Positions 3,903 to 49,505 of a stretch of DNA of 64,000 nt are shown here, one piece after another; position 1 is the first letter of the stretch, and every line of letters starts with the position of its first letter. The stretch is from the IMG/VR virus record IMGVR_UViG_3300037337_000106, positions 3,929-67,928 of that record; one strand, given 5' to 3'. This DNA is from a virus (Duplodnaviria; Caudoviricetes). The position numbers and the translations under genes were made by a program. The notes beneath the pieces were generated by a model. That model had not been told where the DNA came from. It did not search any database and was given only the letters and a program-made list of their open reading frames with translations.

Positions 3903-3929
3903 TAAAAAGAACCCTATAGGGTTCTTTTT
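3903..3929. terminator. intrinsic terminator, potentially bidirectional
   Basis: aaaaagaaccc-tata-gggttcttttt. Confidence 0.8.
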
Positions 3930-40267: not shown

Positions 40268-40556
40268 CCTTTTAAGTTTCTTTTTATAAATTTAGACTCA
40301 TTCTTGTTTAGGATAATAATATATCTAACGTTATTCTTGTCTTTATATACCTGATATCTTACGCATTCTATTTGATGCCATTCGTTAGTGTAGCTATAAT
40401 CCTTTAATTGACTCTCAATACTTCCACATGATATTAAACTAAATGCAAATATTATTAATAATTTCTTCATAGATTGATTTTATATCTTACTCAAAGGCTT
40501 AAATACTTTAGTTATATTGACAGTTCACTGGAATGTTTCAGTAATTTGATAAAATA

Positions 40557-40973
40557 TTATGTATACTGCTCACAACGTCTCTTATAGTTTCCTAAAAGAC
40601 CTATGATGTTGTCAGCACCTACTGGATTTGCAGAGTGAGAATAGAATATTGGTAGTTTTTGATTATTATCAATACAATAATCTACTAACCATTTTGCACA
40701 ATCCATACCTGTTTTTTCAGTATAATTCTGTGCATCTTGATAATCCTTGCTTACCTGATAATCATGCCAGTATTCCTCTGGTGTATAATGTTCATCCGCT
40801 AAATCATGATCGAAAGATATTAAATAAGGAAGACCAAATTTAGTTATCCATTGTGTAAATTGCTCATAATTCAAAACCCATTCAATAGTACCTGCTTCCT
40901 TTGGTACTCTTCCTTCTATATCTAAGTAAGGATTTCTTAAATCATCTAACCATAATATTTTTAAATTGCTCAT
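40557..40973 (-). CDS. cyclic-phosphate-processing receiver-like domain protein
   Basis: LWLDDLR, ISFDHDL, TGMDCAKWL, HSANPVG. Confidence 0.75.
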   Translation of the reverse strand: MSNLKILWLDDLRNPYLDIEGRVPKEAGTIEWVLNYEQFTQWITKFGLPYLISFDHDLADEHYTPEEYWHDYQVSKDYQDAQNYTEKTGMDCAKWLVDYCIDNNQKLPIFYSHSANPVGADNIIGLLGNYKRRCEQYT

Positions 40974-41059
40974 AATATTGATGTTTTAATTTTGTATATG
41001 TAAATATAAACAAAAAAACCCTGATTAAAAAATCAGGGTTGTTAAATCTTTGTTAAAGT

Positions 41060-41593
41060 TTAGACTGAAAAGAACATGTATTTTTTCCATTCTTCAGGAA
41101 TATATTCAATAGATTTCATTAACATTAAATAATGAGGTCTTTTTGGTACAGGTATTTCTTTACCGAATTCCTCTAAACTTAAATCAGCCTTTTCTCCGTT
41201 GCATCTTTTGCATGCAGTTACTAAATTATCCCACGTATTTCCACCTCTCTTGGATTGAGGAACAACATGATCTATTGTTAGTGTCTTGATATTATCATCT
41301 CCACAATATACACACATGTTTCCATCTCTCTTAAATACATTCTCCCTTGTTAATGGAACTTTATTATGTCGAGTGTTTACATATTTTTGAACCCTAATAA
41401 CCGATGGTTTCTTTATAATAGTATTTGGATTAACTAACTTGAAATTGCAATCATGTTCTTCAACAATTGCAGCGTTTCCTTTAATAACAACGACAAATGC
41501 TCGTAGGCTACTGATAATACTTCTTGGCATGTAACTAGAGTCAAGCACTAGTGTTTTGGTGTACTTTTTCATCGATATTGTATGATTATACAT
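41060..41593 (-). CDS. HNH endonuclease
   Basis: RD...CVYCG...TIDHVVPQS.RGG..WDNLVTAC..CN..K. Confidence 0.9.
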   Translation of the reverse strand: MYNHTISMKKYTKTLVLDSSYMPRSIISSLRAFVVVIKGNAAIVEEHDCNFKLVNPNTIIKKPSVIRVQKYVNTRHNKVPLTRENVFKRDGNMCVYCGDDNIKTLTIDHVVPQSKRGGNTWDNLVTACKRCNGEKADLSLEEFGKEIPVPKRPHYLMLMKSIEYIPEEWKKYMFFSV

Positions 41594-41704
41594 ATTAGAT
41601 TAAAGTGTCTTAAAATCATCTAATATATGATTAATTATTATATGTAAATCTAAACAAAAAAATCCGTATTAAAAAATACGGAGTGTTAAATCTTTGTTAA
41701 AGTT

Positions 41705-41776
41705 GCACGACCCCTAGGAATCGAACCTAGCCGTAGTAGTTTTGGAGACCATACCGGCACCTTGCCTGTGAGAAGT
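41705..41776 (-). tRNA. tRNA-Trp(CCA), atypical (short D arm, mismatched acceptor)
   Basis: Loop CTCCAAA; T arm CTAGG-TTCGATT-CCTAG. Confidence 0.6.
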
Positions 41777-41849
41777 ATTTAAAGAAACTGTCTAAGCTAA
41801 TTTCTACCATATAGGTTGTCTAAAGGTTGCTCTGTTTCTTTAATATTAG

Positions 41850-41921
41850 AACCTCTAACGGGAGTCGAACCCATGTTTGATCTTTAGAAGAGATCCGTTT
41901 TTCCAATTAAACTATAGAGGC
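41850..41921 (-). tRNA. tRNA-Arg(TCT)
   Basis: Cloverleaf; GATCT-CTTCTAA-AGATC. Confidence 0.9.
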
Positions 41922-41922
41922 A

Positions 41923-42158
41923 AATTCCTGAATTTCGTTTCAGGAGACGTAAGTAAATAACTTCCTAGAAGTTAATACCTAACAGCAACTACGCTGCTAA
42001 GGCAAATTTGTCGTTTGCGTTGATATTAATCTCGTCCTATATTCTATATCGTAATCAACACCATTCATGCCCTTTTTTAATACTTTTAATTTAGTGGACA
42101 TGTCGAGAGTCGAACTCGAGTCTTACAAAACGTTTATAAGCTTCAACAATTAATATTT
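41923..42158 (-). ncRNA. ssrA: circularly permuted two-piece tmRNA (acceptor piece ~42158-42095; coding piece 42072-~41923; tag ANDKFALAA at 42018-41989)
   Basis: GGGCATG/CATGTCC-A acceptor stem with G3.U70; T arm TCGAG-TTCGACT-CTCGA; tag ORF GCAAACGACAAATTTGCCTTAGCAGCGTAG. Confidence 0.88.
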
Positions 42159-42159
42159 G

Positions 42160-42232
42160 AAATCCTAATAGGACTCGAACCTATATCCTCTGTGTTCGTA
42201 GCACAGGGCTCTTCCAATTAAGCTATAGGATT
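42160..42232 (-). tRNA. tRNA-Arg(ACG)
   Basis: CTGTG-CTACGAA-CACAG. Confidence 0.9.
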
Positions 42233-42238
42233 ATATAG

Positions 42239-42320
42239 TTCCCCTTGCGAGAATTGCACTCGCACACCATAAAGGCACCAGATTTTAAGTCTGACATGTC
42301 TACTGTTCCATCAAAGGGGA
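42239..42320 (-). tRNA. tRNA-Leu(TAA)
   Basis: Loop CTTAAAA; long variable arm. Confidence 0.85.
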
Positions 42321-42418
42321 ATTTAAAAGATAATCCCGTAGATTATCTGCTCAACTTAAGGTATTGAGTTTGTTTGAAATTAATTCATTACCAAGTCATT
42401 CTCCATTTTGGAGATGTC

Positions 42419-42491
42419 GGGTGTTAGGACGGTACCGCCCCGTCTTCTCAAGATTCACAGTCTTGCGCTTCACTAAAAAGCTTCAAACACC
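42419..42491 (-). tRNA. tRNA-His(GTG)
   Basis: Loop CTGTGAA; C73; non-canonical T loop GGCGGTA. Confidence 0.8.
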
Positions 42492-42503
42492 ATATTAATT
42501 TTG

Positions 42504-42572
42504 TTGCGATTACAAGTTACGCTCCTGTCTGAAAATACTTATGAGATATTCTCGATCCTAGATCAAATCGCA
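42504..42572 (-). tRNA. tRNA with CAT anticodon (Met/Ile2), truncated D arm
   Basis: AATAT-CTCATAA-GTATT; TGCGATT/AATCGCA acceptor. Confidence 0.7.
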
Positions 42573-42576
42573 ATTT

Positions 42577-42701
42577 AAGTATCGTATTAAGTTTGTCTAT
42601 CAAGATTCGAACTTGATCAACCGAAGACAACGTTATGATATAGAACGGCCGTAATGTATCATAGGCTGGTGCACCATTTCTTTAATATTTTACCGATACT
42701 T
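42577..42701 (-). ncRNA. putative Y-shaped small RNA containing a T-arm module
   Basis: Terminal stem AAGTATCG/CGATACTT; TTGTCT...ATCAAG-TTCGAAT-CTTGAT-AGACAA. Confidence 0.5.
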
Positions 42702-42703
42702 AG

Positions 42704-42788
42704 TAGAGAGAAGAGGTTTCGATCCCCATCCATTTTATTGGACCAACTGTTTAGCAAACAGTGCTAGAACCATTCTAGTTTACTCTCT
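42704..42788 (-). tRNA. tRNA-Ser(GCT)
   Basis: Loop TTGCTAA; long variable arm. Confidence 0.85.
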
Positions 42789-42795
42789 ATTATTA

Positions 42796-42866
42796 TTCAC
42801 ATTGGGAAGATTTGAACTTCCATTTCATCACACAGGGATGCGTGCTAACCGTTCTACTACATGTGA
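42796..42866 (-). pseudogene. tandem duplicate of tRNA-Ile with a destroyed anticodon loop
   Basis: Near-identical D and T arms to 42873-42944; anticodon arm CATCCCTGTGTGATG. Confidence 0.7.
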
Positions 42867-42872
42867 ATATTG

Positions 42873-42944
42873 TTCACCTGGGAAGAATTGAACTTCCATT
42901 TCATCCTTATCAGAGATGTGTGCTAACCATTCTACTACAGGTGA
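42873..42944 (-). tRNA. tRNA-Ile(GAT)
   Basis: CATCT-CTGATAA-GGATG. Confidence 0.9.
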
Positions 42945-42949
42945 ATTTG

Positions 42950-43088
42950 CGCCCAAAGATGGAATTGAACCAACCTTACTAACTACATATTTAATCACTT
43001 TCCATGCTTTATCTAGATCATCGGGAAGTAATATTAAATCATCGTTAGCCCACTTACCACTAAGAACGTTCTTATTGACTATTCGGGC
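42950..43088 (-). ncRNA. 139-nt tRNA-shell RNA with an extended anticodon-position arm
   Basis: GCCCGAA/TTTGGGC-G acceptor; T arm GTTGG-TTCAATT-CCATC. Confidence 0.6.
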
Positions 43089-43185
43089 AATTGATCGCTA
43101 AAGGTGAGAGCCTTACACCGAATATTTTATTCACGGTCGTCCTGTCATAACACCACGGTCTCTTTTTATTTATTTTAGCGATTTG

Positions 43186-43257
43186 CTGCTCCACTAGGAA
43201 TCGAACCTAGATAAAATGATTAACAGTCATCCGTAATAACCTTTATACGATAGAGCA
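43186..43257 (-). tRNA. tRNA-Asn(GTT)
   Basis: Loop CTGTTAA; G73. Confidence 0.9.
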
Positions 43258-43291
43258 AAATTATCCGTCTTTCCGGATTGTCTTATTTTAG

Positions 43292-43363
43292 CGGACCCTG
43301 AGAATTTCGAAATCTCGACCCGTTGCCTAACAAACAACCGCTCTGCCTCTGAGCTAAAGATCC
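43292..43363 (-). tRNA. tRNA-Asn(GTT), second divergent copy
   Basis: GTTGT-TTGTTAG-GCAAC; G73. Confidence 0.75.
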
Positions 43364-43415
43364 ATATCCGTCTTTCCGGATTGTCGTTTGACGTTCAGCA
43401 TTACCTTTAACGTTG

Positions 43416-43488
43416 TGCGGATTACAGGTTACGATCCTGTCTCTCATGGGCTTCAACCATGCGCTTTCACCAGATTAGCTTAATCCGC
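43416..43488 (-). tRNA. tRNA-Phe(GAA)
   Basis: CATGG-TTGAAGC-CCATG. Confidence 0.88.
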
Positions 43489-43564
43489 AATTGCATAATA
43501 TCATAGTTTCAATTAGAATATGTAGACATTATGATTTAATCAACCTTAACATGTTAAGGTTTAG

Positions 43565-43645
43565 TGGGACCAGGTGGATTCGAACCACTCCCTTTCGGAC
43601 GGGGTTTACAATCCCGCTGCCGTATCCAAACGACTTTCTGTTCCC
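43565..43645 (-). tRNA. tRNA-Tyr(GTA)
   Basis: Loop TTGTAAA; long variable arm. Confidence 0.85.
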
Positions 43646-43669
43646 AGTTTTTAAGAAAACTTAAATTTG

Positions 43670-43739
43670 ATTACTAACGGGATTCGAACCCTATTCTCCG
43701 GCGTCGAAGCCGGTATGTTGGCCATAACACCTTTAGTAA
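43670..43739 (-). ncRNA. tRNA-like element (Arg-TCG-like, 8-nt anticodon loop)
   Basis: TTACTAA/TTAGTAA acceptor; CCGG-CTTCGACG-CCGG; GGG-TTCGAAT-CCC. Confidence 0.5.
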
Positions 43740-43837
43740 AAACTATTAGTAGCTATTTCCTGCAAGATTTAACTTCCATAGTATGTGCATAAACGAAGTA
43801 AGGATTGCAGTCATTTGTTTGTTTATTTACATTTTTG

Positions 43838-43908
43838 TACCCTGTGGTGGTTACGCTCCACCGCCAATTGCATGTAAAACAATTACGCTTCTATTACGCC
43901 AACAGGGC
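43838..43908 (-). tRNA. tRNA-Val(TAC)
   Basis: ATTGT-TTTACAT-GCAAT; T loop AGCGTAA. Confidence 0.82.
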
Positions 43909-43967
43909 AAATCTAATTCTATGATCGTATTATGTAACTCTATGAATTAGTAACAGTCTTATCATTG

Positions 43968-44038
43968 TACCCCCGGTAGGTAATGCTCCTACTTCCCCTA
44001 GTTAAAAGCTAGGTGCTTCACTTTAAAGCATCAAGGGC
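43968..44038 (-). tRNA. tRNA-Lys(TTT)
   Basis: CCTAG-CTTTTAA-CTAGG; T loop AGCATTA. Confidence 0.82.
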
Positions 44039-44127
44039 GTATAATCATAAGTACTCTAAGTTCTTCTCTCTCCTTCAAATATAACTTAGAATGTTTTGGG
44101 AGATACTTATAATTAAGATTTTATTCG

Positions 44128-44211
44128 AAGAAGGTGTGGGATTCGAACCCACAACAGTACAACCTGTTACTTGTTTTCAAAACAAGCTCCTCATCCAACC
44201 GGATACCTTCC
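44128..44211 (-). tRNA. tRNA-Ser(TGA)
   Basis: CTTGT-TTTGAAA-ACAAG; long variable arm. Confidence 0.85.
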
Positions 44212-44212
44212 A

Positions 44213-44320
44213 TTTAGTATTATCAATATGTCAATTAACGTTTGTTTTTAATTATAAGTAAATATAATCAAAATCTTTTAATATAAAAAACTTTAAGTGT
44301 TAATTTTTTGTTAAAGTTTT
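44213..44320 (-). repeat. ~105-bp promoter plus boxA-like leader, three near-identical copies (also 46269-46372 and 47295-47400)
   Basis: tttagtattatcaatatgtcaattaacgtttgtttttaattataagtaaatataatcaaaat... repeated. Confidence 0.9.
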
Positions 44321-44322
44321 AG

Positions 44323-44394
44323 TGGTCCCGGCAGGATTTGAACCTGCGACCATTTCGTTATGAGCGAACTGCGCTACCACTGCGCCACGAGACC
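44323..44394 (-). tRNA. tRNA with CAT anticodon (Ile2 or elongator Met)
   Basis: GGTCTCG/CGGGACC-A; loop CTCATAA. Confidence 0.88.
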
Positions 44395-44458
44395 ATTTCT
44401 TTTTTAGAGTTTTTCTGAGGAGAACTCAATGAAAAGAGAATCATATAAACTACATCGT

Positions 44459-44532
44459 TGCGACGCTGTAGAGTCGAACTACATTTAATGTAGCTTATGA
44501 GACTACCTCCGATACCGACCGGTCCGCCCGCC
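44459..44532 (-). tRNA. tRNA with CAT anticodon, atypical acceptor and D arm
   Basis: GTAGT-CTCATAA-GCTAC; TGTAG-TTCGACT-CTACA. Confidence 0.6.
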
Positions 44533-44539
44533 ATTTATG

Positions 44540-45187
44540 TTAAAATTTCATCTTTCTGCCTTTAATCCAACCTTCTATTAAATATGATTCTAATAATGAC
44601 ATTTTAATACTAATATTTTGTTTTAATTCAATGTTATAAATCCAGCATTTACCGAACTGTGAGTTTAAAGATCCGGATTGTTTAATTGAATTAGATGCTC
44701 CAATCTTTTTCTTTGTCTCTTCATTATGTTTTCTACCTAACCATGTTTCTCCGGACCATGCTCCGCTATCGAAAACTGCATTTCTCCAACGTTGTTTAAA
44801 TTCTTTATCATTAGTGAATTTTTCTTTAAATGCATTTCCACCAGCAATTGATCGATTCCTTTGAATTTCTTCAGATATAAAGCCTCCACCTAATTGAATA
44901 TTCATGCACATTTTGTCATTCAGCATATCTTCATTAACCAACTCCTTTTCTCTAGTCTTTAAAGAATTTCTATCTATTAAGAACTCAACAATCTTTGTGA
45001 CATGGTTTTCTTTGCCATGTTTATTTATAGAATGCCATAGACGTGTACCTGAACCAGCATAACCATCTTCTAGGTTGTCAGTTGAATGCATTCCAATATA
45101 AAACATATTTGTAATGATACATGTTGTTTTATAAATGTAATGATATTTACGAACCGAAGCTCTTTTAATTCCTTTTGTCTTTTGCAT
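44540..45187 (-). mobile_element. free-standing GIY-YIG (Seg-like) homing endonuclease in the tRNA array
   Basis: YIYKTT...FYIGMH...GYAGSG; NUMOD3-like GRKHNEETKKKI. Confidence 0.85.
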
Positions 45188-45220
45188 ATAGTATATATCC
45201 TATAAAATATGCAGAAAAGT

Positions 45221-45289
45221 TATGGTCGGCGGATTCGAACCACTCCTTTGGGTTATGAGCCCATCATGCTACCATTACACTACCCCGCA
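45221..45289 (-). pseudogene. initiator-type tRNA-Met(CAT) with a non-complementary 3' acceptor strand
   Basis: TGCGGGG...TGGG-CTCATAA-CCCA...CCGCC then GACCATA instead of CCCCGC. Confidence 0.6.
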
Positions 45290-45296
45290 ATATTTG

Positions 45297-45370
45297 CTGA
45301 TTTGAAGGGATTTGAACCCTACTCCTGGTTTCCAATAACGGACCCGTGCACCATTACACTACAATCAATC
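45297..45370 (-). ncRNA. tRNA-like element without a readable anticodon
   Basis: TAGTGTAATGGTGCAC D arm and AGGG-TTCAAAT-CCCT T arm; aberrant central arm. Confidence 0.45.
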
Positions 45371-45452
45371 GAGAACTTCGAAATTCTCAGGTTTAAGTTA
45401 ATTACTCTTAAACTTACTCTTAAACTAATTTTCAATAATAGAAAATATTTAG

Positions 45453-45523
45453 CGGTCCATAACGGTAACGATCCGTTTTCTTCTGGGCGACAACCAGGTA
45501 TACTGCCTTTGTACTAATGGACC
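45453..45523 (-). tRNA. tRNA-Asp(GTC)
   Basis: CTGG-TTGTCGC-CCAG; G73. Confidence 0.82.
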
Positions 45524-45614
45524 AAATATAAACAGTAGTTGGCTAGAGGGTTTTGCGGACCTTAACAACATATATATCCACAATTGCTGTTTATGACCAA
45601 TTGCTTAACTAGTG

Positions 45615-45687
45615 TGGAGCTGACGGGCCTCGAACCCGCATACTTTTCGTTGCAAACGAAGTGCTAATCCATTTTAGCTACAACCCC
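45615..45687 (-). tRNA. tRNA-Ala(TGC)
   Basis: GGGGTTG/CAGCTCC-A with G3.U70; loop TTTGCAA. Confidence 0.9.
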
Positions 45688-45707
45688 TTATTTAATCTTA
45701 TTTTTAG

Positions 45708-45778
45708 TAGCCCGACGGAGTAACGCTCTCCGGTTTTTGAATTGAAAGTACAATGTCCTGCTTTTAGACGACCGGGCC
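45708..45778 (-). tRNA. tRNA-Glu(TTC)
   Basis: Loop CTTTCAA; T loop AGCGTTA. Confidence 0.78.
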
Positions 45779-45872
45779 AATTAATTTAAATTATGTAATA
45801 TGGTTTTTTGAATCCATATCTTAATCTACTATTACGCTTTAATCTCTTAAGCTAATTACTAATTTAAATTAG

Positions 45873-45946
45873 AGCTCTCTTTCAGGATCGAACTGAATCT
45901 ATTCCGGGTTACAAAGCCAGTGCACCACCATTTATGCGTAGAGAGC
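45873..45946 (-). tRNA. tRNA-Thr(TGT)
   Basis: GCTCTCT/AGAGAGC; loop TTTGTAA. Confidence 0.75.
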
Positions 45947-45978
45947 AAATTATTAGTCTTTCCTAATAGTCATTATAG

Positions 45979-46061
45979 TACTCTTACTCGGAGTCGAACC
46001 GAGATGCCATTACAGCGTTGGTTTCTAAGACCAGTGCGTCTACCAGTTCCGCCATAAGAGC
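45979..46061 (-). tRNA. tRNA-Leu(TAG)
   Basis: Loop CTTAGAA; long variable arm. Confidence 0.88.
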
Positions 46062-46192
46062 AAATATCCTAGCACCACCTAGGAAAACTGTCCGGTTTAT
46101 CCAATTCAAAAGAACCCCAAACGAATATATGGGTTAAGGATCAATGCATGTAGCCGGCAATCATTGCAGTATTGTAATCTTTAAAGATTTAG

Positions 46193-46268
46193 TCGAGAGA
46201 GTGGGATTCGAACCCACGTGATCTGCAGTCCAAGTGCAGCTAGATAAACCTGACTCCTATACCTCTCG
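46193..46268 (-). tRNA. tRNA-Pro(TGG)
   Basis: CTGCA-CTTGGAC-TGCAG; C1-G72. Confidence 0.85.
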
Positions 46269-46372
46269 TTTAGTATTATCAATATGTCAATTAACGTTTG
46301 TTTTTAATTATAAGTAAATATAATCAAAATATTTTAATCTAGAAAACTTTAAGTGTTAAAGTTTTGTTAAAG

Positions 46373-46444
46373 TTATCTTATTAGGATTCGAACCTAAACT
46401 GAATCATTCAAAGTGATTAGTGCTAACCGTTACACTATAAGATA
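46373..46444 (-). tRNA. tRNA-Gln(TTG)
   Basis: AATCA-CTTTGAA-TGATT. Confidence 0.85.
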
Positions 46445-46490
46445 TTGTAATTCTTTCTCTAATAAAAGAAGTCAATTGCTATTTAATGTT

Positions 46491-47174
46491 TTACCATTTC
46501 ATCTTCCTACCTTCAATCCAACCATTATCTAAATATGATTGAATTTCATTATTTTTTATTTTAATAGATTTTTCATCTGTAATTTTATAAATCCAACATG
46601 TATTATATTGTGAGTTTAAAGATCCTTTTCCATGATCGATCTTAGACACTTTCATTTTATTTATAGAATCTTCTTTATGTTTTCTATCAGTCCAATTTAT
46701 TAAAACTAACATTTTGTTTCTATATTCTGGATCTTTCCATAATTCTTTTAACCTTATTTTATTTCTTTCTGCATTCCGTTTTATAAATTCAGGATCAGTC
46801 CAATTTAGTTCATTCATTTTTTTACCTCCTTTAGATAATTGTTCTTTAGTCATGCAACCCGCACCACCTTCTCCGCCTAACGCTAAATTCATGCATTGAG
46901 GATCCTTTAATAGATCTTCATTAACCATTTCTTTTTCTCTAGCTTTTAAAGAATCTCTATCTTTTAAATATTCAATTATCGCAGTGACATGATTTTCTTT
47001 GCCATGTTTGTTTATTGAATGCCATAATCTTTTACCTGAACCAACATAACCATCTTCTAGGTTATCAGTTGAGTGCATTCCAATATAAAACCTTTCAGTA
47101 ATGATACATGTGGTTTTATAGATGTAATGATATTTTCGCCTTGAGGCTTGTTTAACCTTAATTAACTTTTCCAT
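46491..47174 (-). mobile_element. free-standing GIY-YIG (Seg-like) homing endonuclease, paralog of 44540-45187
   Basis: KYHYIYKTTCIIT..FYIGMHSTDNLEDGY.GSG near-identical to the other copy; central region divergent. Confidence 0.85.
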
Positions 47175-47220
47175 ATAGTATATATCTATAAAAATATGGA
47201 AATGTTAAAAAGGTTCCCGG

Positions 47221-47293
47221 AGCGAATAGACAGGATCGAACTGTCATTTCCAGATTGGAAGTCTAGAGTAATAAGCCATTATACGATATTCGC
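47221..47293 (-). tRNA. tRNA-Gly(TCC)
   Basis: GCGAATA/TATTCGC-T; loop CTTCCAA. Confidence 0.9.
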
Positions 47294-47568
47294 GTTTAGT
47301 ATTATCAATATGTCAATTAACGTTTGTTTTTAATTATAAGTAAATATAATCAAAATCTTTTAATCTTGAAAACTTTAAGTGTTAATTTTTTGTTAAAGTT
47401 TCCATTTTGCATTTCCAACCGTTTGTTTTCCTTTCTACGGTCTTAAACAATTCTCTTAATAATCTTTCCTTTTCACACATATTCTATTGTTTTTAATTAT
47501 AAGTAAATATAATCATTTTATTTGACTTATAAAAACTTTTAGTGTTAATGTTTTGTTAAAGTTATTAG

Positions 47569-47638
47569 AGTTTCGTAGTGGAATCGAACCACTTCTGATA
47601 GGGTTGCAAGCTATCCAATCTCCAAGATTAAACGAAAC
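47569..47638 (-). tRNA. tRNA-Cys(GCA), short D arm
   Basis: GTTTCGT/ACGAAAC-T (U73); loop TTGCAAC. Confidence 0.75.
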
Positions 47639-47648
47639 GTGTTAAATT

Positions 47649-47685
47649 AAAAAAGGACCAATCAGTTTTGAGAGGTCCTTTTGAA
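47649..47685 (-). terminator. intrinsic terminator (attenuator) just before the first tRNA gene
   Basis: AAAAGGACC-TCTCAAAACTGATT-GGTCC-TTTTTT. Confidence 0.8.
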
Positions 47686-47706
47686 TATTTATATGTTAAT
47701 AGATTT

Positions 47707-47853
47707 TTAACTCATATTAACTTTATGATCTTCAAAAGAACCATTGTGTTTCCATTCTCTAGTATAAAAGACACATGTTTGATCTCCAGTTGGTAGGGCT
47801 AGATTCATCTCAAGTAGACTAATATTCTGTGATATGATTTGCAATGTTTTCAT
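47707..47853 (-). CDS. 48-aa putative attenuation leader peptide containing all 20 amino acids (not in ORF track)
   Basis: MKTLQIISQNISLLEMNLALPTGDQTCVFYTREWKHNGSFEDHKVNMS*; codons 38-41 are complementary to the terminator 5' arm. Confidence 0.7.
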   Translation of the reverse strand: MKTLQIISQNISLLEMNLALPTGDQTCVFYTREWKHNGSFEDHKVNMS

Positions 47854-48007
47854 TTTAATTTGTTTAATTATATATAAGCTTTATTTTCTTATACATATTA
47901 TATTATTATATATCTTTTAGTTTCAGCTAATTCACTATAAAAGAGCTTTATTTTTAATTTATTTTCAAAAGGTGTATTTCTTCACGAATTTAAATTATTT
48001 TATACTA

Positions 48008-48036
48008 ATTATATATAACTTTTTATTTTTGTTTCA
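48008..48036 (-). promoter_or_regulatory. class II promoter TGAAAC-N17-TATAAT, representative
   Basis: Same spacing at 14846-14874, 19675-19703, 20712-20740 and 61963-61991. Confidence 0.7.
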
Positions 48037-48163
48037 ATTAAATAATAAATGTAAATCCAATAAGTACTAATAATGAAAGTATAGCAATTAATATGAATAT
48101 ATTGACTTGTCTCTTTATAAATTTCTTTTCTTCGGTATTCATTAATAAATTATTTGTTATAAC

Positions 48164-48517
48164 TTATACCTTTGATTTTTGTTTTGTTTCAATTTCTTTT
48201 ATGTGTTTGCAATTTCCTCTTCTAAATGTGGAAGCAGGACAATTACAACTCCAATCGCCTTGTTTAAATTTTACTAAATATTCCGATTTTCCATTTGATG
48301 AAGGTACTTTAAATTCAAGATCTATCTGAGACCTAGACTTCACTTCTAATGCAACTTGTTTCTCTTTATATATTATATCATCAGTATACTCAACATCCTC
48401 CCTTGTTGTTCCAGGATCAACCTTGATCCATCCTGGACAGATGTATGTCCCGCTTAATGTGTTAAATATTCCAAATGTTTTGAAAACAGGATCTCTTGGT
48501 ATTTTATATTTTGCCAT
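48164..48517 (-). CDS. SWIM zinc-finger protein
   Basis: WSCNCPAS...CKH. Confidence 0.75.
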   Translation of the reverse strand: MAKYKIPRDPVFKTFGIFNTLSGTYICPGWIKVDPGTTREDVEYTDDIIYKEKQVALEVKSRSQIDLEFKVPSSNGKSEYLVKFKQGDWSCNCPASTFRRGNCKHIKEIETKQKSKV

Positions 48518-48962
48518 AATATGTTTAGTATGTTAGATTAACTAATTATTCTTCGAACCCCCTAGAATGTACAATAGTAACACCATATAATTCCTCATAC
48601 TTTTTCTTAAAACCAAATGGCATGTATTTTACATAATCTCCTTCAAATAACCATTTAATGGTTTTTTCACAAACGTCATGTAGGGATTTATCACTACTTC
48701 TATTTGTTTCACCAAGATATGATGCATTTTGTTGAGAATCCCAATCAGTTTGATATGATATTGTAATTCTTCTACCCTTTGACATGTGAAAATTATATAA
48801 TTTTCCGTCGATATTTATAAATCCTGGAATCATTTCAAATAATATGTTTGTGTCTTTATTGAAATTAGTCATAATTGATTGTTTTAATTTGTATATGTAA
48901 ATATAAACAAAAAACTCTGTATTAAAAAATACAGAGTGTTAAATCTTAGTTAAAGTTCTTGC

Positions 48963-49505
48963 TTAAATATCAATGGTATTTTTACTACCATCTGTCATTG
49001 AATAAACAATATGTGATGGAATTAAGACATGTTCATGTGTATTAAACATTTCCACGTATTTTTTCCCCATACCTGATTTTAAATATGCAACAGTCATATG
49101 GGGATGATAATCAGGATAGTCTGTTTTATACGGAAGTTCGCATAAAGATTTATTGGCGGCATGCAAATTATCTCCCTTAATATCAAATTTAAGCACATCA
49201 AACTCTTTGTTTTCAAATAATGAAATGTTATGTGCGAGACATTTATCAAAGCCCAACCCTTGTAATTTTACCTTAACTGCATTTAATGATACATCGGCAT
49301 TAAGTCCATATAGTAGTGTACAATGTGATTCAGTTTCTAAACCATGCCCTCCTCCTTCTTCTGATTCAAATAGATCAGATGATATTATTTCTTTATGAAT
49401 TTGCGCCATTTCTGGAAAGTCAAAATATAACATTGCACAATTAGCACCATACGTTTGTTTTTTAGCCTCGTTCATAAATTCCTCAAATAATTTTATTTTT
49501 TTCAT
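48963..49505 (-). CDS. 2H phosphoesterase (T4 gp57B/Acb1-like) with MKKIKLFEEFMNE leader
   Basis: HCTLLYG and YHPHMTVAY (two HxT motifs). Confidence 0.75.
   Translation of the reverse strand: MKKIKLFEEFMNEAKKQTYGANCAMLYFDFPEMAQIHKEIISSDLFESEEGGGHGLETESHCTLLYGLNADVSLNAVKVKLQGLGFDKCLAHNISLFENKEFDVLKFDIKGDNLHAANKSLCELPYKTDYPDYHPHMTVAYLKSGMGKKYVEMFNTHEHVLIPSHIVYSMTDGSKNTIDI

Follow-up and report, generated by a model that had tools for sequence, protein, structure and literature searches.

What decides when a phage transcribes the tRNA genes that it carries? The question is raised by a stretch of 64,000 nucleotides from a virus of the Caudoviricetes (positions 3,929 to 67,928 of IMG/VR record IMGVR_UViG_3300037337_000106, hereafter the window), which is part of a 67.9-kb viral contig of 31% G+C and an estimated completeness of 31%. 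In front of a cluster of tRNA genes on its minus strand lies a short open reading frame (ORF) of 48 codons, and a first-pass annotation, made from the sequence alone, took this ORF for the leader of an attenuator that would sense depletion of any tRNA. Our analysis confirms the observation behind that proposal and supports its architecture and conservation, and it corrects the geometry and the scope of the interpretation. The reading at which we arrive is a ribosome-mediated transcription attenuator placed before phage tRNA genes and sensing decoding in general, which, judged from sequence, has about an even chance of being correct. The parts of the proposed switch are as follows.

47707 to 47853, minus strand: leader ORF of 48 codons plus stop codon, from the ORF list, with all 20 amino acids present by codon 36.
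47746 to 47774, minus strand: predicted hairpin formed by codons 27-36 of the ORF, next to arm A on its upstream side, a weak part of the minimum-free-energy (MFE) fold.
47731 to 47742, minus strand: arm A, GGUUCUUUUGAA, codons 38-41, the 5' strand of the predicted antiterminator.
47695 to 47721, minus strand: inner hairpin GUUAAU..AUUAAC of the MFE fold, with the stop codon (47709-47707) in its loop.
47674 to 47685, minus strand: arm B, UUCAAAAGGACC, the shared strand, able to pair with arm A over 12 base pairs (bp) or, through its last 9 nt, with arm C.
47659 to 47651, minus strand: arm C, which forms a hairpin with the last nine bases of B and is followed by U6.
47649 to 47682, minus strand: intrinsic-terminator-like hairpin AAAAGGACC/GGUCCUUUU of the predicted fold, with an inner UCA/UGA helix and U6 at 47654-47649.
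47568 to 47638, minus strand: tRNA-Cys (GCA), the first tRNA, found by ARAGORN and matched by the Rfam tRNA model at 30.4 bits.

The leader peptide, MKTLQIISQNISLLEMNLALPTGDQTCVFYTREWKHNGSFEDHKVNMS, was accurately described at the outset. All 20 amino acids occur within the first 36 codons, the set being completed at codon 36 itself; a stretch of 22 residues holds 18 different ones and the synonymous codons that had been listed are present (both read from the ORF by eye); and the stop codon lies 68 nt from the start of tRNA-Cys, where about 70 nt had been given. The annotation had also proposed to compute how often 36 codons of this genome's composition contain all 20 residues. Of the 319 ORFs on the contig with 36 codons or more, 2 are complete by codon 36, the leader included, and so are 36 of 14,889 36-residue segments (0.24%) in ORFs of at least 100 amino acids. 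Completeness is rare, not unique, and since a lone all-20 ORF per contig is about what chance would deliver, the single-sequence case is suggestive rather than compelling.

Translation of the leader is plausible. Its predicted start context scores 5.58, against a median of -4.56 for random ATG codons, and stands at the 46th percentile of 65 long ORFs; it is gene-like and typical for the genes of this phage, in which Shine-Dalgarno motifs are nearly absent (2 of 65), as in Bacteroidota. Peptide searches gave no informative homologue: a word-indexed search matched its own cluster alone, a full HMMER search against 1.84 billion representatives returned the leader itself and two weak partial matches to proteins of 839 and 950 amino acids, and tblastn against 50,697 phage records found nothing below E = 1.

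The RNA that spans the end of this ORF can adopt two mutually exclusive structures, as the annotation had seen. Arm A pairs with arm B over 12 bp, one of them G-U, and both this helix and the inner GUUAAU/AUUAAC helix are part of the MFE fold of 47640-47860. Arm B is also the 5' arm of the predicted terminator before tRNA-Cys, whose U-run ends 10 nt before the tRNA and which a simple terminator scan missed because its loop exceeds 8 nt. The A:B duplex is predicted at -14.7 kcal/mol against -6.06 +/- 1.59, a value reached by none of 2000 dinucleotide shuffles (202 nt upstream); the fold from A to B has -19.8 kcal/mol and the terminator hairpin, with its inner 3-bp helix, -14.5 kcal/mol. In the 98-nt piece from A to C the terminator form is the MFE structure (-22.7), and in the whole 221-nt leader the antiterminator form is (-40.5 kcal/mol, z -2.13, with 4 of 200 shuffles folding as well). 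The two forms are thus near-isoenergetic, as expected of a switch. The locus therefore has a predicted intrinsic terminator between the leader and the tRNA genes and an exclusive antiterminator that shares a strand with it and overlaps the ORF, two features of known attenuators.

Is the arrangement kept by selection? With the RNA ligase gene 4 kb upstream as an anchor, 80 related loci were found at 61-93% identity, many of them with tRNA arrays, and the short ORFs in front of these arrays align to the leader of the window at 24-48% identity. Two leader types can be told apart, type I before tRNA-Cys, as in the window, and type II before tRNA-Ser. Two peptide-anchored scans extended the collection to 58 loci with 43 distinct leader peptides; one candidate with a GTG start (L104) and two partial matches (L148 and L149) were dropped from the leader set, and collapsing identical sequences reduced the 58 loci to 47 distinct ones. 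The survey of array starts took in only loci with at least 500 nt between the locus start and the first tRNA. Leaders range from 34 to 51 codons across the 58 loci, the ORF is open in every locus, and the ATG is kept, with one GTG.

The annotation had suggested looking in relatives for short ORFs that diverge in sequence and remain complete for the 20 amino acids, and this is the pattern that emerged. At the identities given above, 38 of the 43 distinct leader peptides are complete for the 20 amino acids; among controls from the same loci this holds for 5 of 587 non-leader ORFs of 44-51 amino acids and for 396 of 33,833 46-residue segments in long ORFs (1.2%). When aligned jointly, the leaders proved too divergent to be searched for a pattern, and they were split into two closer sets. 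All 31 type II leaders are complete, and when their alignment columns are shuffled 25.2 are complete on average and 29 at most, so that 0 of 2000 shuffles reach the observed number; the type II leaders are related by descent, and the count is therefore not a probability, although its direction is clear. The shuffles fall short because His and Trp relocate within the alignment. His mostly occupies position 8 and is found at 12 or 14 in leaders that lack it there, and one type II leader without the conserved Trp has a Trp in an insertion.

Closer to the window the same holds on a smaller scale. The same leader occurs, at 98% identity, in two IMG/VR contigs, from whose ORF that of the window differs by six substitutions, five synonymous and one D42N, with none from codon 43 to the U-run. 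A 90% peptide cluster holds seven variants of the leader, and all seven keep the 20 amino acids; read by eye, A19G, which removes the only Ala, is found only together with T22A, which supplies another. Across four metagenome runs (DNA contigs), 11 variable sites fall in codons 8-42 and none is listed at 47640-47729 or 47731-47742; no RNA run is listed among the 21 runs surveyed. Known phages gave only two short matches at the DNA level, at 76-79% over about 80-90 nt, to Chryseobacterium phages MA9V-1 and MA9V-2, and the matching region of MA9V-1 has no tRNA array nearby. Two scans of a metagenome collection gave no match, and the gene for the neighbouring SWIM protein, used as an anchor, led to two distant loci, both without tRNAs.

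The RNA elements are conserved along with the peptide content. A hairpin followed by a T-run lies 23-37 nt after the leader stop in 46 of the 47 distinct loci, L138 being the exception, and a complement of the terminator 5' arm is embedded in the ORF in 13 of 13 distinct tRNA-Cys-type loci, so that the pairing which the annotation had proposed to look for in relatives is present there. An alignment of 12 distinct type I sequences shows no unpaired cell in arms A, B or C and only two changes, both one-sided and G-U-compatible; the terminator hairpin is paired in 12 of 12, as is the inner hairpin GUUAAU..AUUAAC, with one G-U change. Of the 51 helix columns 2 vary, and of the 59 remaining ones 26 do (Fisher p 5.6e-7); the constraint on the arms thus acts at the nucleotide level and extends to the synonymous positions of arm A. 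Arm A itself is invariant in these relatives, synonymous sites included, except for one wobble-compatible change.

One further tRNA-Cys-type locus, L036, was left out of this alignment because its arms are not in register, and it is counted among the 13. Its leader, inner hairpin and tRNA-Cys are homologous to those of the window, and its terminator arms, GAGCCCGAC/GUCGGGCUU, are unrelated. Its ORF nevertheless carries UCGGGCUCU, a 9-bp complement of its own 5' arm (-18.0 against -9.3 +/- 2.1; 0 of 300 shuffles). When the arms of the window and of L036 are swapped, the pairings score -2.6 and -6.7, against -16.6 and -9.2 for each with its own arm. A 16-nt anchor around the stop codon retrieved 28 stretches, 14 of which were examined and proved to be 13 unrelated ones and one known contig; the other 14 lie on known contigs, and no further tRNA-Cys-type arm variants came to light.

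In type II loci the complement is shorter, at 5-8 bp, and sits in the last two to three codons of the ORF, which is the classical attenuator geometry; there a terminating ribosome would cover the 5' strand of the antiterminator. The complement tracks the class of the terminator, CCGAG going with CUCGG, CCGGG with CCCGG, GAUCUGGG with CCCGGAUC and GAUUUGGG with CCCAAAUC. Between the last two pairs the ORF tail differs by a synonymous Leu codon (CUG/UUG), and with it go the exchange of CCCGGAUC and CCCAAAUC in the 5' arm and a matching change in the 3' arm, and in 20 of 23 cases the tails fit their own arm better than the arms of other classes. At the peptide level these leaders share the conserved blocks WSDSLCG and YNNEPKQ. 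In L076 (4215-4358) and other tRNA-Ser-type leaders, the stretches coding for WSDSLC and YNNEP pair in the MFE fold, UUCGUUAU with AUAACGAA; on this folding evidence the apparent peptide conservation may reflect one more RNA helix in the switch, comparable with segment 1:2 of trp. L018, L055, L063 and L076 also have a conserved TTGACATATTGGATAAAAT about 25 nt before tRNA-Ser, after the terminator. It stands too near the tRNA to act as its sigma-70 -35 box and may serve in processing or as a promoter specific to the phage.

How might such a locus work? From the sequence and its predicted folds we infer a mechanism in which the ORF is translated, transcription can end at the U-run, and the position of the ribosome sets the direction of regulation. 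RNA would start at a conserved promoter, for which there is a candidate.

47897 to 47926, minus strand: promoter-like site CTGAAA, 18 nt, TATAAT, containing GATATATA, with 10/12 matches in a consensus scan, about 45 nt upstream of the leader start.

The block TGAAAC..GATATATAAT..TATAAT is kept upstream of all tRNA-Cys-type leaders of the relatives. The first feature of the RNA would be the translated 48-codon leader. Since A and B are transcribed before C, an arm A left free would capture B first, in the 12-bp helix aided by the stop-codon hairpin; the terminator could then not form, and transcription would continue into tRNA-Cys and beyond. A ribosome close behind the polymerase, lying over about codons 34-48 as B emerges, would prevent A:B, B would pair with C, and transcription would stop at the U-run. 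The inner stop-codon hairpin may serve both as part of the antiterminator and as a pausing or synchronising hairpin that holds the polymerase until the ribosome arrives. Because every amino acid is encoded upstream of arm A, slow decoding of any type of codon, whether the cell is starved, a tRNA species has been lost, an anticodon nuclease is active or translation is blocked as a whole, would hold the ribosome back and favour read-through. The net effect would be a negative feedback, with phage tRNA rising when decoding is slow and falling when it is fast.

A number of observations weigh against this reading. Some concern the leader of the window itself. It contains no runs of any codon, 20 different amino acids being spread across 36 codons, which implies a low sensitivity to any single one of them; the tandem or clustered regulatory codons of known attenuators are absent, and this defines how the variant differs. 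The annotation had supposed that a ribosome which has completed the leader masks the antiterminator, and this does not agree with the geometry: the 3' end of arm A lies 21 nt before the stop codon, which would put it beyond the footprint of a terminating ribosome in the window, unlike in the tRNA-Ser-type relatives. Masking arm A would need a ribosome at about codons 34-46, or one with its bulk within the 45-nt loop between A and B. Conversely, Trp34, Lys35 and His36 are so near to A that a ribosome stalled there would partly cover it. No anti-antiterminator (1:2) was found in the folds of the leader, and the hairpin of codons 27-36 leaves arm A free; with the antiterminator in the untranslated MFE fold, an untranslated leader would thus read through by default.

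Other points come from the relatives. Homologous leaders are not all complete, as the first-pass idea would have had it: 5 of the 43 distinct leaders lack one or two amino acids. Among the exceptions, L099 is without Leu, L105 and L106 are without Arg, L107 and L108 without Ala and Arg, and L036, whose leader has only 34 codons, is without Thr; three amino acids, Ala, Asp and Trp, are missing from the 42-codon leader of L039; in many tRNA-Ser-type leaders Met is the start codon only. Most leaders were retrieved through peptide similarity, a route that selects for intact ORFs; the loci reached through the ligase gene do not share that bias and have a leader at every visible Cys- or Ser-type array start. 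Several other tRNA genes or small arrays of the relatives lack such a leader (L025, L033, L040, L057, L067, L086 and L088). With pN/pS at 0.50 (pooled) and 0.67 and variability at the three codon positions of 21:22:29 and 30:27:37, the coding signals in the leaders appear weak. Neither helix has a compensatory double change among the 12 closest distinct sequences, so that strict covariation for the tRNA-Cys type comes from one relative, L036, and the type II complement beats shuffles at 15/300 or fewer in only 13 of 31 loci.

The array behind the switch raises two further difficulties. The tRNA cluster extends from tRNA-Cys down to 41849, and the annotation had it cover all 20 amino acids. Default ARAGORN assigns 16 types, Rfam adds matches, and relaxed ARAGORN brings the number to 19 at most; tRNA-Trp was not found in the window by either ARAGORN setting or by Rfam. 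A tRNA left unassigned by ARAGORN at 43669-43739 (minus strand) has, by eye, the anticodon loop CUUCGAC, which would make it Arg(UCG), and it is unlike the tRNA-Trp of the relatives. A comparison of the leader codons with the anticodons of the tRNAs in the window gives nothing to build on: most codons are readable by eye, but so is nearly any codon, and we make no claim from it. The second difficulty is a repeat.

47496 to 47563, minus strand: 68-nt repeat directly after tRNA-Cys, a 'class I promoter' of the annotation, one of five copies in 41500-48600.

What the annotation called internal class I promoters do exist as a five-copy family of 68-nt repeats, whose role as promoters is putative, being read from sequence. 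If the promoter-like copy directly after tRNA-Cys is a promoter, the switch alone governs only tRNA-Cys, and the later tRNAs are independent of it. A 32-codon ORF (47382-47480, minus strand) lies between two copies of the repeat, just before tRNA-Gly.

Leader and array can also be compared with each other. The leaders of L019, L052 and L053 contain neither Ala nor Arg. In these loci the SWIM gene is immediately followed by tRNA-Arg(UCU), which precedes the leader; tRNA-Ala was not found in the apparently complete array of L052 by default ARAGORN, relaxed ARAGORN or Rfam. In the other leaders the Arg codon is AGA, and both tRNA-Arg(UCU) and tRNA-Ala lie behind the switch. The match between leader and array in Ala and Arg amounts to one or two evolutionary events, and is thus a hint and not a proof. 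tRNA-Arg(UCU) after the SWIM-domain gene, outside the proposed switch, marks a sub-lineage (L052 at 8127, L062 at 15322, L019 at 14955 and L039 at 18937). Going further, the group might carry a general decoding gauge: each amino acid with a phage-supplied tRNA would be represented in the leader by one or a few codons, scarcity of any one aminoacyl-tRNA, for example when a host anticodon nuclease destroys one tRNA species, would stall the ribosome before A and open the way to the replacement tRNAs, and the set of amino acids in the leader would co-evolve with the set of tRNAs behind it. We advance this extension tentatively, as possible but probably too strong.

The alternative that survives best is an ordinary small phage gene. 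The ORF would then encode a 48-residue micro-protein and the hairpin with its U-run would end the mRNA; A:B would shape or protect the 3' end or be cut in processing, for instance by a double-strand RNase; tRNA-Cys would be reached by leaky read-through and processing, and no stalling would be sensed. An ORF that is conserved, open and gene-like at its start, with pN/pS below 1, is consistent with this account, as are the helices conserved without compensatory changes among the closest relatives and the promoter-like repeats that later tRNAs have of their own. The strongly conserved blocks WSDSLCG and YNNEPKQ of the tRNA-Ser-type leaders fit it as well, but the codons of WSDSL and YNNEP pair in the MFE fold of L076, and the blocks may be constraints on RNA. 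The peptide searches revealed no homologue outside the phage group and no other family link. Identity between the leader types falls to 24-48%, yet completeness stays at 38 of 43 against about 1%, with residues relocating, which would be unexpected of a structural micro-protein, and the synonymous positions of arm A are frozen. A terminator 10 nt before the tRNA together with an upstream decoy of its arm, kept in L036 with other letters, would be hard to explain by 3'-end protection alone. We regard the micro-protein as unlikely, though with an appreciable share of the probability.

The switch could also be real and read another input, such as the supply of ribosomes or of initiation, the coupling of transcription to translation, or the binding of a phage or host protein to the leader, the completeness being secondary. 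The alternative pairing is well supported, the leader has no codon runs, and some leaders lack one to three amino acids, all of which such a switch would accommodate; moreover, as the fold predicts read-through without translation, any drop in translation would turn it on. Against it stands a completeness far above background and kept through the relocation of residues, which points to the content of the leader mattering, and the leaders without Ala and Arg go with arrays in which no tRNA-Ala was detected and tRNA-Arg(UCU) lies outside. We hold another input to be distinctly improbable.

T-box riboswitches bind tRNA directly, need no ORF, exceed 200 nt and control synthetase or amino-acid genes. 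Like the element proposed here, they respond to the state of tRNA, namely its charging, and act through a choice between terminator and antiterminator. A T-box-like switch, or another known cis-regulatory RNA, would let uncharged tRNA stabilise the antiterminator and would make the ORF incidental. The translation-related context and the pair of exclusive structures would suit it, but an Rfam cmscan of 40500-48600 with E up to 1 found neither a T-box nor a leader of the His, Trp, Thr, Leu or Phe type; the only overlapping match was GibS sRNA, whose 30 bits fall far below its gathering score of 115. A T-box would not fit into so short a leader, and the ORF is kept open across indels; we consider this explanation very improbable. 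That ORF, hairpin and matching 12-mer came together by chance in an AT-rich genome is negligibly probable: one all-20 ORF per 68-kb contig is to be expected (2/319) and the two strands of the contig have 11 and 15 stems of at least 12 bp, but none of 2000 shuffles reached the A:B duplex, and the arrangement recurs in dozens of diverged loci, so that the comparative data contradict it.

The ribosome-mediated attenuator has to be set beside systems that are already understood. Leader-peptide attenuation is a textbook mechanism of amino-acid operons, in which the leader senses one or a few amino acids, as in trpL, hisL, pheL and leuL or in the multivalent leaders thrL and ilvGMEDA. The locus of the window resembles these in having a candidate promoter, a short ORF that may be translated, a predicted intrinsic terminator and an alternative helix that shares a strand of the terminator and overlaps the ORF, and in both cases the position of the ribosome would decide which helix forms. 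In contrast to them, the genes to be regulated are tRNA genes and not biosynthetic enzymes, and runs of a single codon give way to each of the 20 amino acids at least once. The 5' strand of the antiterminator is part of the ORF and ends 21 nt upstream of the stop codon instead of standing at or after it. Furthermore, without a detected 1:2 anti-antiterminator, the absence of translation predicts read-through and not super-attenuation, and no leader family of Rfam matches the sequence.

Attenuators of antibiotic-resistance genes that respond to translation stress offer a second comparison. Examples are vmlR of Bacillus subtilis (PMC9226507) and mef(E)/mel (PMC4335068). In attenuators of this kind a ribosome stalled on a short leader opens an antiterminator, so that a block of translation induces the genes that relieve it. 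There the ribosomes are stalled by drugs and the output is a resistance protein, whereas the element described here is encoded by a phage, its output is tRNA, and the proposed signal is slow decoding of any codon. The nearest published system in the literature searched is the trn operon of Anabaena sp. PCC 7120, a long tRNA array that stays silent until translation is impaired (PMC8421152, PMC10272220). In that operon about 26 accessory tRNA genes are reported to come on under translational stress, with an RNA-repair ligase co-regulated; the window, too, has an RNA ligase gene, 4 kb upstream of its array. The trn operon, however, is chromosomal or megaplasmid-borne and not phage-borne, and it is induced through promoter repeats and a repressor, not a leader; the words attenuator, leader and terminator occur neither in the text of PMC8421152 nor in that of PMC10272220. 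Full-text searches of the literature returned no account of attenuation before phage tRNA genes and none of a leader for all amino acids, and within the literature searched the annotation was thus right in knowing of no description of a general tRNA-depletion attenuator.

The neighbourhood holds several genes with links to RNA or to mobile elements. The RNA ligase upstream of the array (51943-53079, minus strand) matches PF09414 with E 1.5e-18 and has an OB-fold domain. A 2H phosphoesterase gene, also upstream of the tRNA cluster (48963-49505, minus strand), matches the anti-CBASS Acb1 family with E 6.3e-07. Inside the cluster, the Rfam permuted tmRNA model RF04321 has a match at 41989-42141 (minus strand; 50.3 bits against a gathering score of 47), and a phage-borne two-piece tmRNA would fit a theme of translation rescue. 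Two paralogous ORFs (46491-47174 and 44540-45187, minus strand), which share a 296-nt repeat at 81% identity and have no clear family in Pfam, interrupt the cluster, and an HNH endonuclease gene (41060-41593, minus strand) stands at its end; the interrupting ORFs and the HNH gene look like mobile insertions.

If the proposed attenuator is correct, a leader that contains all 20 amino acids and controls transcription into tRNA genes would serve to sense overall decoding capacity. As a compact and portable switch for 'translation health', it could also be of use in synthetic biology. For the phages themselves it would give a concrete answer to how and when they deploy their tRNA arrays, be it for matching codon usage, for compensating the shut-off of the host or for escaping defences that cleave tRNA.

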